Shown: positions 10,748-12,241, numbered from the stretch's first letter. The stretch: 14,936 nt of DNA from Escherichia coli (GCF_003334765.1 NZ_QOWT01000054.1), one strand, 5' to 3'. Notes: generated by a model from the letters alone, not told the origin. Translations and numbers: made by a program.

Positions 10748-12241
10748 TTCATAATCACTCCCGGGCGGTACGTAGTCAGTGATACCGGAATTTCCGGAGA
10801 GGGTCGCAGGTATATTGTTTCTGTGCAATTCATGGTTATTCACGTTGGATGTAGTGATTGCTGCATCCAATGCTATCGGAAAGAGATTAACCAGCAAATG
10901 GTTCCTCAAATCGTATTGATATTTACCCGGCGCATTGAGCACCACCATCTGCCCCCGTTCCCACATCAAACGGCTGGACCGGAAAACGATTTGCTTTTCA
11001 TGCTCCGTGGAAATTCACGAAAAAGTTATTGGGTCATTCATCGAAAAAAACATATTCTGCTGACTGGAGTCATCACCCAGAAATAAACGTCAACTGAACA
11101 ATAACGATTTTTTCTTTGTGGGATTCCATACACTTTTCCATCCCCCTCTGAAAATTAGTCATCAACTCACCAACACATCTTCTGAAATTTGTATTAAACT
11201 TATTGCTTAAATAGATGATATAATATCTCTTCCATTGCACGGAATCAGCAAAAACTGTCATTCTGGCAATCTTAACAAGAACATTTATCGGTTAATTTTA
11301 TCAGTAAACAAAGGAATATCATACTGATAAAATGAACATTCAGGGTAAGATGATGAAATTCACATGAAAAATGCTGAAGATTATTTATTTCATGCAGATA
11401 AACGATAAAAAACAAGAGAGTATATTTTTCAGTGTAAGAGTCAATTGTTCATCTCCACTGACGATCACGGTCAGCATACAAACAAAGTGAGTCCTCCTGC
11501 TTAGTCATTGCGTATCAAAAACTAAAAAACAAAAGATTCTGCAAACAACGTGACATTTTTTATGACATTTCCCGAATACATGTATATCAATAAACGGTAG
11601 TCATCGTTGAATTAATAAGTCTTACAGAGCTATACGTAGCTTATAAAACCACTCAACGACCATCATCACCTGACTATTTAGCGGGAGTATCGTCTGTATA
11701 AATCCATAAATAATAACACCTGTTATTAAAATAAGAATGCTGTCAGCCGTAAACTATTAACACAACACCTGTCCACTCTATCTGTTCTTTTAACTCAACC
11801 GGCGTCGAAAATATTTCCTGATTAGTGCATCATAGTCTTCTTTTTTCTTTCTCAACCATCAAACCAAACACAACATTCACAACCACACAATAAAACAAAA
11901 CCAAAAACATAAGATTAACAATGCCAGTCAACAGGAAAACACTGAATATTGAGGTGCGCTGTAACCTGGACAGCGCATACGGCGCATGTGATCAACACAG
12001 CCCATTCTTTTCTGTCATCCCCCAAATGCAGAACAAACAATCATAACCAAATGAATATAAAAGAAAATATGATTTTTCACCATCATAAAAACATCAATGT
12101 ATCTTTATATAAAAACACTGATAACATGACATAGACATTTAAAAACATAAACAAATCACAACAAAAACATTTGATAATCACTTAGTGACAAAATAAAATT
12201 GAGACGATTTTGTTATAAGAGAGGCGACATGGAGTGAGATA
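10748..12241. promoter_or_regulatory. About 1.5-kb AT-rich non-coding region, presumed promoter/leader of the 339-aa gene and a likely xenogeneic-silencing target
   Basis: No ORF over about 90 aa on either strand; the short ORFs present (10823-11086, 11073-11261, 11949-12134) have no Shine-Dalgarno or family support. Strongly AT-rich with A/C-rich low-complexity tracts near 11840-11920 and 12090-12200. Promoter elements not mapped. Confidence 0.4.

Follow-up and report, generated by a model that had tools for sequence, protein, structure and literature searches.

What does the gene-free DNA in front of a 339-amino-acid (aa) regulator gene do in an Escherichia coli genomic island? The window, the whole 14,936-nucleotide stretch of E. 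coli DNA that was analysed, holds about 1.5 kb (10748 to 12241) between a 199-aa ORF and this gene. A sequence-only reading had described the interval as an unusually long AT-rich leader and had suggested H-NS-type silencing, a regulatory RNA or a long structured 5' UTR in place of a simple promoter. Positions 7663 to 13678 were 99.9% identical to the chromosome of E. coli 042, and positions 10600 to 13400 were 100% identical to 042, 55989, and several further strains. The locus is an integrative genomic island of the CP4-57/CP4-44 type. Gene order follows RefSeq for 042 and for O111:H21 strain 15A; the genes and the parts of the intergenic region are as follows.

First in the gene order across the window, minus strand: zinc-ribbon genes (RefSeq).
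7786 to 8355, minus strand: 'inovirus Gp2 family' (YagK/YfjJ) gene (RefSeq).
8972 to 9184, minus strand: hha (= hha2, EC042_4516; RefSeq; PMC9431211).
9883 to 10089, plus strand: AlpA-type HTH gene (RefSeq).
10148 to 10747, plus strand: 199-aa ORF after the AlpA-type HTH gene (ORF list).
10748 to 10918 (171 bp), no strand: non-IS spacer of normal GC content.
10919 to 11078, plus strand: 3' remnant of an IS1-family element, ~160 bp.
11079 to 12070, no strand: AT-rich spacer (~33% GC), no coding or RNA ancestry detected.
12071 to 12241, plus strand: promoter-proximal block, marked by cross-genus similarity.
12242 to 13261, plus strand: 339-aa regulator gene (RefSeq 'hypothetical protein / transcriptional regulator').
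Beyond the 12242 to 13261 gene in RefSeq order: YeeP-type GTPase gene.

From its position we infer that the 339-aa gene is EC042_4513. The 199-aa ORF has a later start in RefSeq, where it is a 573-bp gene (190 aa) for a hypothetical protein. In agreement with the sequence-only reading, no credible ORF was found between 10748 and 12241 (longest entry in the ORF list, ≤87 aa), and the A/C-rich run that it had quoted was located at 11860 to 11910. GC content was 0.32 to 0.37 over 11001 to 12400 compared to ~0.50 in the flanks, with a value of 33% for 11079 to 12241 and of 0.49 for 10601 to 11000. Because the first ~330 bp of the region are not AT-rich and positions 10919 to 11078 derive from IS1, the true AT-rich non-coding stretch is 11079 to 12241, an uninterrupted 1,163 bp; the earlier picture of 1.5 kb of AT-rich non-coding DNA stands for this part and fails for the ~330 bp before it. 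The label of leader assumes co-transcription with the gene, and the best promoter-like site sits only 43 bp before the ATG. The region from 10748 to 12241 is a composite of a spacer, a dead IS1 fragment, AT-rich DNA, and a putative promoter block of ~170 bp, and only this last ~170 bp of the 1.5 kb looks functional. With some reserve, we consider it probable that the region forms the control-region side of a CP4-57/CP4-44-type island and does not serve as a long leader.

The left part of the composite records an old insertion. RefSeq annotates a frameshifted partial IS1 family transposase pseudogene over 10919 to 11063. Three relatives (L004, L005, and L007) carry a 617-bp IS1 pseudogene whose right boundary is identical to that in the window, where the left ~600 bp of the pseudogene have been deleted. 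The common right boundary of the fuller copies marks an old, shared insertion. No transposase domain was detected in any frame (NCBIfam). In the spacer preceding the remnant, several E. coli variants have 86 additional bp between 10765 and 10766.

The predicted signals for expression of the 339-aa gene lie at the opposite end of the region, next to its start codon:

12171 to 12199, plus strand: best sigma-70-like promoter, TTGATA (12171 to 12176), 17 bp, TAAAAT (12194 to 12199).
12177 to 12189, no strand: 13-bp palindrome, putative operator, ATCACTTAGTGA(C/T), inside the promoter spacer.
12231 to 12234, plus strand: Shine-Dalgarno sequence GGAG, 7 nt before the ATG.

The promoter fits the consensus at 10 of 12 positions, a consensus match only, and the region as a whole held 8 sigma-70-like matches versus 8.9 in shuffled sequences. 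Transcription is predicted to start at about 12206, which would give a leader of ~36 nt. The palindrome takes the form ATCACT[T/G]AGTGA[T/C] across loci; ATCACTNAGTGA occurs once per locus at an invariant position in 21 loci from 4 genera, and in the loci of E. coli, Edwardsiella, Rahnella, and Yersinia the palindrome lies 63 to 79 bp upstream of the ATG. Nucleotide similarity between genera was limited to the last ~170 bp (12071 to 12241; 62 to 68% identity). Within this block, reduced diversity among E. coli copies was confined to the last ~85 bp (12158 to 12241; π of ~0.043), and π was 0.056 to 0.075 over 12078 to 12157. More distant homologues do not have this palindrome and carry others of their own (ACTACATAGTAGT and ACTACTACGTAGTAGT in L022 and L023, ~30 bp upstream of the start codon) or less regular repeats of the ACTAC/GTAGT type, ~35 to 90 bp upstream of the start codon (L024 and L025). 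Such differing palindromes in distant homologues are what co-evolution of operator and regulator would be expected to produce.

Binding of a ribbon-helix-helix (RHH) dimer to a short palindrome in the promoter of its own gene is a classical autoregulatory arrangement, and the features that mark such promoters occur together here: −35 and −10 elements separated by 17 ± 1 bp, a conserved palindrome, and an RHH domain in the product. Given the C-terminal RHH fold of the downstream protein, the 339-aa protein likely autoregulates via the promoter palindrome. Since a conserved promoter and operator adjoin the gene, the sequence evidence points to transcription starting just upstream of 12242, with the rest of the region unconserved, an outcome that the sequence-only reading had named as refuting it. 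Three other candidate motifs were discarded. A second operator, ATCACT-N18-AGTGAT (10754 to 10783), was attributed to chance because its left half-site is present only in the 042/L011 lineage and its 'spacer' contains the 86 extra bp in other variants. The RfaH ops-like sequence GGCGGTACGTAG (10764 to 10775) has mismatches at key positions and spans the 10765/10766 indel junction, and was likewise taken as chance. The mid-gap motif TCACTCTGAAGTTA, found in Yersinia, Edwardsiella, and, weakly, Rahnella, had no convincing counterpart in E. coli.

The regulator itself belongs to a broad family. Its sequence combines an all-alpha N-terminal domain (~290 aa) without a solved relative and the C-terminal RHH domain, with sub-threshold similarity of the C terminus to RepB-RCR_reg and RepA regulators (Pfam, NCBIfam). 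Close relatives were found only in Edwardsiella tarda (58% identity), Rahnella (49%), and Yersinia kristensenii (48%). A profile search recovered a family of 487 clusters at 50% identity, and a scan of representative genomes for the 339-aa gene returned only one mis-binned MAG contig. The regulator gene comes first in the rightward operon of CP4-57/CP4-44-type islands, followed by the YeeP-type GTPase gene and those beyond; in E. coli 042 and O104:H4-type strains this operon includes Ag43, IrmA, anti-restriction genes, and CbtA/CbeA. The useful outcome, small but concrete, is that an uncharacterised and widespread regulator family now has a predicted promoter and operator. If the operator prediction holds, it provides a handle on how the islands, and the virulence-associated genes linked to hha2, are switched on.

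We then compared the DNA upstream of the promoter across E. coli. The 1.16-kb block was present in 246 of 5,426 complete E. coli genomes (4.5%) at 86 to 100% identity, and in every carrier genome it lay directly upstream of the same 339-aa gene. In these 246 genomes no gene is annotated within the block besides the IS1 pseudogene, and the block was not found in the plasmid collection. Diversity was calculated from an alignment of the window with nine diverged E. coli copies, with the truncated L007 left out of the diversity figures. Nucleotide diversity was 0.087 over 11077 to 12241, compared to 0.026, 0.020, and 0.068 at codon positions 1, 2, and 3 of the 339-aa gene and 0.070 in the IS1 remnant. 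Variants carry deletions of 26 bp and 49 bp in 11691 to 11762, an 11-bp deletion near 11812, and, in one case, an 11-bp tandem duplication inside the A/C tract. Because diversity matches that of third codon positions and indels are tolerated, the spacer block as a whole evolves about neutrally, under no detectable sequence constraint; 11478 to 11517 and the last ~85 bp in front of the ATG are the exceptions.

The following features stand out within the spacer:

11291 to 11337, no strand: AT-rich palindrome with 16-nt arms and a 15-nt loop (ssDNA fold z = −3.4).
11478 to 11517, no strand: most conserved block within the spacer (π of 0.019 versus 0.087 for the region).
11860 to 11910, plus strand: A/C-rich low-complexity tract, within a G-poor zone at 11821 to 11933.
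11955 to 11977, no strand: GC-rich hairpin with an 8-bp stem and no T-run.

A search for hidden genes in the spacer was negative. None of the small ORFs in 11077 to 12241 is intact across all 10 E. coli copies, none shows third-position-biased substitution, and no small-ORF peptide is common to E. coli, Edwardsiella, Rahnella, and Yersinia. One candidate, a 28-aa hydrophobic ORF on the minus strand (11392 to 11478) with AGGAGG 15 nt upstream, raised the idea of a type I toxin, which was dropped; the ORF falls inside a 30-aa TTG-started ORF (11385 to 11477) that is intact in 8 of 10 variants and shows no codon periodicity. The 28-aa ORF adjoins the conserved block at 11478 to 11517. With no conserved ORF and no cross-genus peptide match, a small protein or type I toxin locus was rejected. 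A hidden protein gene or pseudogene was rejected as well: six-frame translations of the spacer had no match in NCBIfam and none at E ≤ 1 among 5.8 billion proteins.

The search for RNA ended the same way. The covariance-model search that the sequence-only reading had named as a check (Rfam cmscan, 9000 to 14936, both strands) returned no match at E ≤ 1. Folding z-scores against shuffled sequences were −1 to +2 in most 120-nt windows on both strands, the exceptions lying around the palindrome at 11291 to 11337 (z of about −3) and the hairpin at 11955 to 11977. Neither hairpin showed compensatory changes: mismatches build up across variants in the palindrome at 11291 to 11337, and the 5' arm of the hairpin at 11955 to 11977 is changed in some variants. 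Iterons and direct repeats were limited to short two-copy families. A structured leader or conserved regulatory RNA is thus unsupported, given that there is no Rfam match, that z-scores are near 0, and that the hairpins are uncompensated; the third-position-like diversity and the indels likewise tell against the suggestion of a regulatory RNA or long structured 5' UTR. The result removes a false lead, in that the locus has no long structured leader, hidden RNA, or hidden gene.

The A/C-rich tract is unusual in composition. Across the whole 14.9-kb window, 80-nt windows with ≤3 G occurred only at 11821 to 11933, and the window from 11828 to 11907 contains 24 C and 1 G. The tract folds worse than all 200 shuffles (minimum free energy of 0 kcal/mol, z = +2.35), and it is slippage-prone, as seen in the duplication described above. 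The segment from 11828 to 11907 has the composition looked for in a Rho utilization (rut) site, being C-rich, G-poor, unstructured, and untranslated over 70 to 80 nt, and no intrinsic terminator was found between the 199-aa ORF and the 339-aa gene. If transcribed rightward, the tract would be rut-like, and Rho loading there is plausible. In Salmonella, Rho and NusG guard H-NS-silenced loci against invading transcription (PMC6797219; PMC9335307). Two observations count against a selected Rho role: windows with C in excess of G to a comparable strength occur elsewhere in the 14.9-kb window, and the Edwardsiella gap is G-rich, not C-rich, on the strand of the gene. Homology of CA-rich tracts between genera was considered and rejected. 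The 13-mer ACATTCACAACCA is common to E. coli and Yersinia but could not be extended into an alignment, which leaves a resemblance in composition only.

H-NS-type silencing, the first suggestion of the sequence-only reading, draws on composition and on the neighborhood of the spacer. Raised AT content in acquired DNA, by which xenogeneic silencing is recognized, is found here (GC content of 0.32 to 0.37; 4.5% of genomes), and the hha paralogue hha2 lies 2 kb upstream in the same island. Paralogous island-region genes of 042 are up 2- to 6-fold in hns and hha/hha2 mutants (PMC6480617, Table 1). The high-affinity H-NS motif (TCGATAAATT-like, ≤2 mismatches) was not enriched, with 11 matches versus 16.6 expected in the window, and A-tract phasing showed no 10- to 11-bp periodicity above shuffles. 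Expression data for EC042_4512 to EC042_4515 were not found in the papers and supplements searched, nor were transcript, transcription-start, ChIP, or binding data for the locus found in the searchable literature. Coating of the AT-rich spacer by H-NS and Hha is plausible on this circumstantial evidence.

We put these results together in a model with a proximal promoter-operator and an upstream kilobase that acts through composition, which we regard as reasonably likely as a whole. The 339-aa gene would be transcribed from the sigma-70-type promoter at 12171 to 12199 with a leader of ~36 nt. Its dimeric RHH product would bind the 13-bp palindrome filling the −35/−10 spacer and so autoregulate the rightward operon, most likely by repression. 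The upstream kilobase would act by composition alone, probably being coated by H-NS together with Hha or Hha2, with the promoter kept quiet. The unstructured, C-rich, G-poor tract may let Rho halt untranslated read-through from the alpA/199-aa ORF unit or from the IS1 remnant short of the promoter. We infer the steps of H-NS coating and Rho action, which remain conditional in the model, from composition and from published work on neighboring or paralogous genes.

Alternatives to this model turn largely on the islands of related bacteria. Where enough flank was available, a YagK/YfjJ–AlpA–zinc-ribbon block encoded on the opposite strand lies across from the regulator gene. The intervening gap without genes is 1,089, 1,557, and 1,377 bp in the three closest genera (Edwardsiella, Rahnella, and Yersinia), and among more distant relatives it is 1,128, 723, 516, 379, and 671 bp; two short contigs without the left-hand genes have gaps of 801 bp and at least 444 bp. 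The gap thus ranges from 379 to 1,557 bp in every context examined and is at least 1.1 kb in Escherichia, Edwardsiella, Rahnella, Yersinia, and L022. Among gaps with measured composition, GC content is 36 to 40% in loci of 45 to 50%. This recurrence of a gene-free gap is the one curiosity of the region and counts against our model, since it is not obviously accounted for by a purely passive spacer.

The alternative that survives best is that the region consists of the remnants of one or more decayed genes or of other mobile DNA and has no function today, not even that of an H-NS platform. The neutral rate and the indels fit this reading, as do the old IS1 insertion adjoining the region and the patchy distribution in 4.5% of genomes. 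The empty six-frame search of 5.8 billion sequences (E ≤ 1) argues against it, as does a search at blastn sensitivity that found nothing else of similar nucleotide sequence among E. coli genomes or plasmids. Relatives with 23 to 58% protein identity to the 339-aa protein also keep a long AT-rich gap at the same position; junk would be expected to be lost, so that the retained gap argues against it. We consider this explanation unlikely. In a converse proposal, the long AT-rich gap is a selected architectural part of a widespread family of enterobacterial integrative islands (CP4-57/CP4-44-like) and acts via its composition and length, not its sequence, either as an H-NS/Hha nucleation platform with a Rho insulator or as the site of a fast-evolving origin for the Gp2-like replication protein. 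If the platform and insulator variant were true, both divergent island operons would be off until the RHH regulator switches. To selection of this kind we give a rather low probability.

A further possibility is that the island uses the gap as a cis-acting DNA element, either a rolling-circle or transfer origin for the neighboring YagK/YfjJ (inovirus Gp2-like) protein or a recombination or packaging site. Filamentous phages offer the comparison, with their intergenic region ahead of gene II. An origin is attractive in the other genera: a block containing the Gp2-like gene lies to the left of the gap, divergent from the regulator, in Edwardsiella, Rahnella, Yersinia, and the more distant contexts L022, L024, L025, and L027; the gap is usually the largest intergenic space of the locus, and in E. 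coli it contains the significant AT-rich hairpin at 11291 to 11337. That hairpin, however, is not kept by compensation, internal deletions are tolerated, iterons and conserved repeats are absent, and nothing outside the promoter block is conserved across genera. In E. coli the Gp2-like gene (7786 to 8355) is moreover separated from the gap by hha2, alpA, the 199-aa ORF, and the IS1 remnant, so a Rep-proximal origin would lie elsewhere. An origin or related element in the gap is therefore quite improbable in our judgment.

Least supported, and in our estimate highly improbable, is the reading that makes the kilobase part of the gene's transcript, as a long 5' UTR, or else a regulatory RNA of its own, with the CA-rich tract serving as a platform for Hfq, ProQ, or another RNA-binding protein or as a translational enhancer: a promoter-like site on the plus strand (11305 to 11333), the strand-asymmetric A+C-rich composition common to the E. 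coli, Rahnella, and Yersinia gaps, and an A/C tract as unusually unstructured as single-strand binding platforms speak for it, but that site, the only distal one, loses the −10 A2 in some variants, the tract has no positional homology between genera and contains indels, diversity equals or exceeds the third-codon-position proxy, Rfam and folding z-scores give no sign of an RNA, and the conserved promoter and operator lie right at the gene.

For the upstream kilobase, then, the evidence favors DNA without sequence-specific function. The feature overall is an IS remnant, an AT-rich island spacer, and a conventional promoter-operator, ordinary in nature, and its parts can be set beside known systems. 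Structured 5' leaders (riboswitches, thermosensors, and those of rpoS, flhDC, and csgD) resemble it only in the gene-free length before a regulator gene; the region differs in having no covariance match, background levels of structure, and no conservation, and its predicted promoter lies 43 bp from the ATG. IS1 family insertion sequences share transposase-gene similarity with 10919 to 11078, but a complete IS1 of ~768 bp has both inverted repeats and intact insA and insB, whereas ~160 of 768 bp are left here, frameshifted and inactive. Parallels also come from upstream regions silenced by H-NS and Hha, such as that of the hly operon, which is AT-rich, lies far upstream, and adjoins an IS element, and that of SPI-1 hilD, where invading transcription is stopped by Rho/NusG (PMC6797219; PMC9335307). 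The likeness lies in AT-rich foreign DNA before a regulator gene, an IS remnant, an hha paralogue, and a C-rich tract; the difference is that this locus, known from sequence alone, has no enrichment of H-NS motifs or phased A-tracts. The promoter block, finally, is comparable to those of RHH autorepressors whose operator lies inside their own promoter, including CopG of pMV158, Arc and Mnt of P22, ParD/MazE-type antitoxins, and Reg576. Classical members have 45 to 90 aa, compared to 339 aa here, where a ~290-aa N-terminal domain precedes the DNA-binding part; what the predicted system shares with them is an RHH fold, C-terminal in this case, and a perfect palindrome in the predicted −35/−10 spacer.

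The 339-aa regulator (window 12242-13261) belongs to a large, uncharacterised family comprising 487 clusters at 50% identity. A confident structure model predicts an all-alpha protein; the match to an RHH DNA-binding domain is limited to the C-terminal ~45 residues, and no solved structural relative was found for the N-terminal ~290 residues. At the loci with genomic context available, the gene reads rightward, away from the AT-rich gap, and is followed by island genes (e.g., YeeP GTPase, WYL, DUF932, antirestriction, and RadC). A 100% identical gene was also observed on contig JAIJJM010000108.1, binned as a "Collinsella sp." MAG; the most likely explanation is that E. 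coli DNA was placed in the wrong bin.

Three sequence elements were identified on the upstream side of the regulator gene:

Rahnella locus 4448-4482 and Yersinia locus 4628-4662: inverted repeat TCATCACT-N17/18-AGTGATGA
Edwardsiella locus 5384-5397, Yersinia locus 5511-5524, and Rahnella locus 5492-5505: mid-gap motif TCACTCTGAAGTTA
Window 11478-11517: 40-bp conserved block within otherwise neutral spacer

In Rahnella and Yersinia, the inverted repeat immediately adjoins the start of yagK/yfjJ, and its half-sites are identical to those of the predicted operator of the regulator gene. Given these common half-sites, the 339-aa protein may control both divergent promoters in these two genera. An E. 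coli look-alike of the repeat (window 10754-10783) is lineage-specific and probably arose by chance.

The mid-gap motif lies ~490 to 620 bp upstream of the regulator gene; Edwardsiella and Yersinia have identical copies, the Rahnella copy carries two mismatches, and no clear counterpart was found in E. coli. The 40-bp block is almost invariant among diverged E. coli copies (nucleotide diversity, 0.019) and includes CCTCCT on the plus strand (AGGAGG on the minus strand). We found no conserved ORF or structure that accounts for it.

Elsewhere in the window, three further features were recorded:

2600-4400, genes on minus strand: second low-GC block (33 to 36% GC)
8972-9184, minus strand: hha2, an extra hha paralogue (EC042_4516 in E. 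coli strain 042)
13371-14936: YeeP-type GTPase gene and rearranged right end, compared with strain 042

The low-GC block encodes two hypothetical proteins (276 and 186 aa) whose genes adjoin a PAPS-reductase/IbrB-like gene pair and, in related strains, also type VI secretion gene fragments. The hha2 gene is located in the same island as the regulator gene, and ~700 bp of gene-free DNA (9185-9882) separates it from an alpA-type gene. At the right-hand end, a junction at ~13678 fuses the YeeP-type GTPase gene, its ORF shortened to 155 aa, to sequence found 7.4 kb farther along in strain 042, where it precedes the DUF932 gene; the window strain therefore lacks the Ag43-yeeR-irmA segment.
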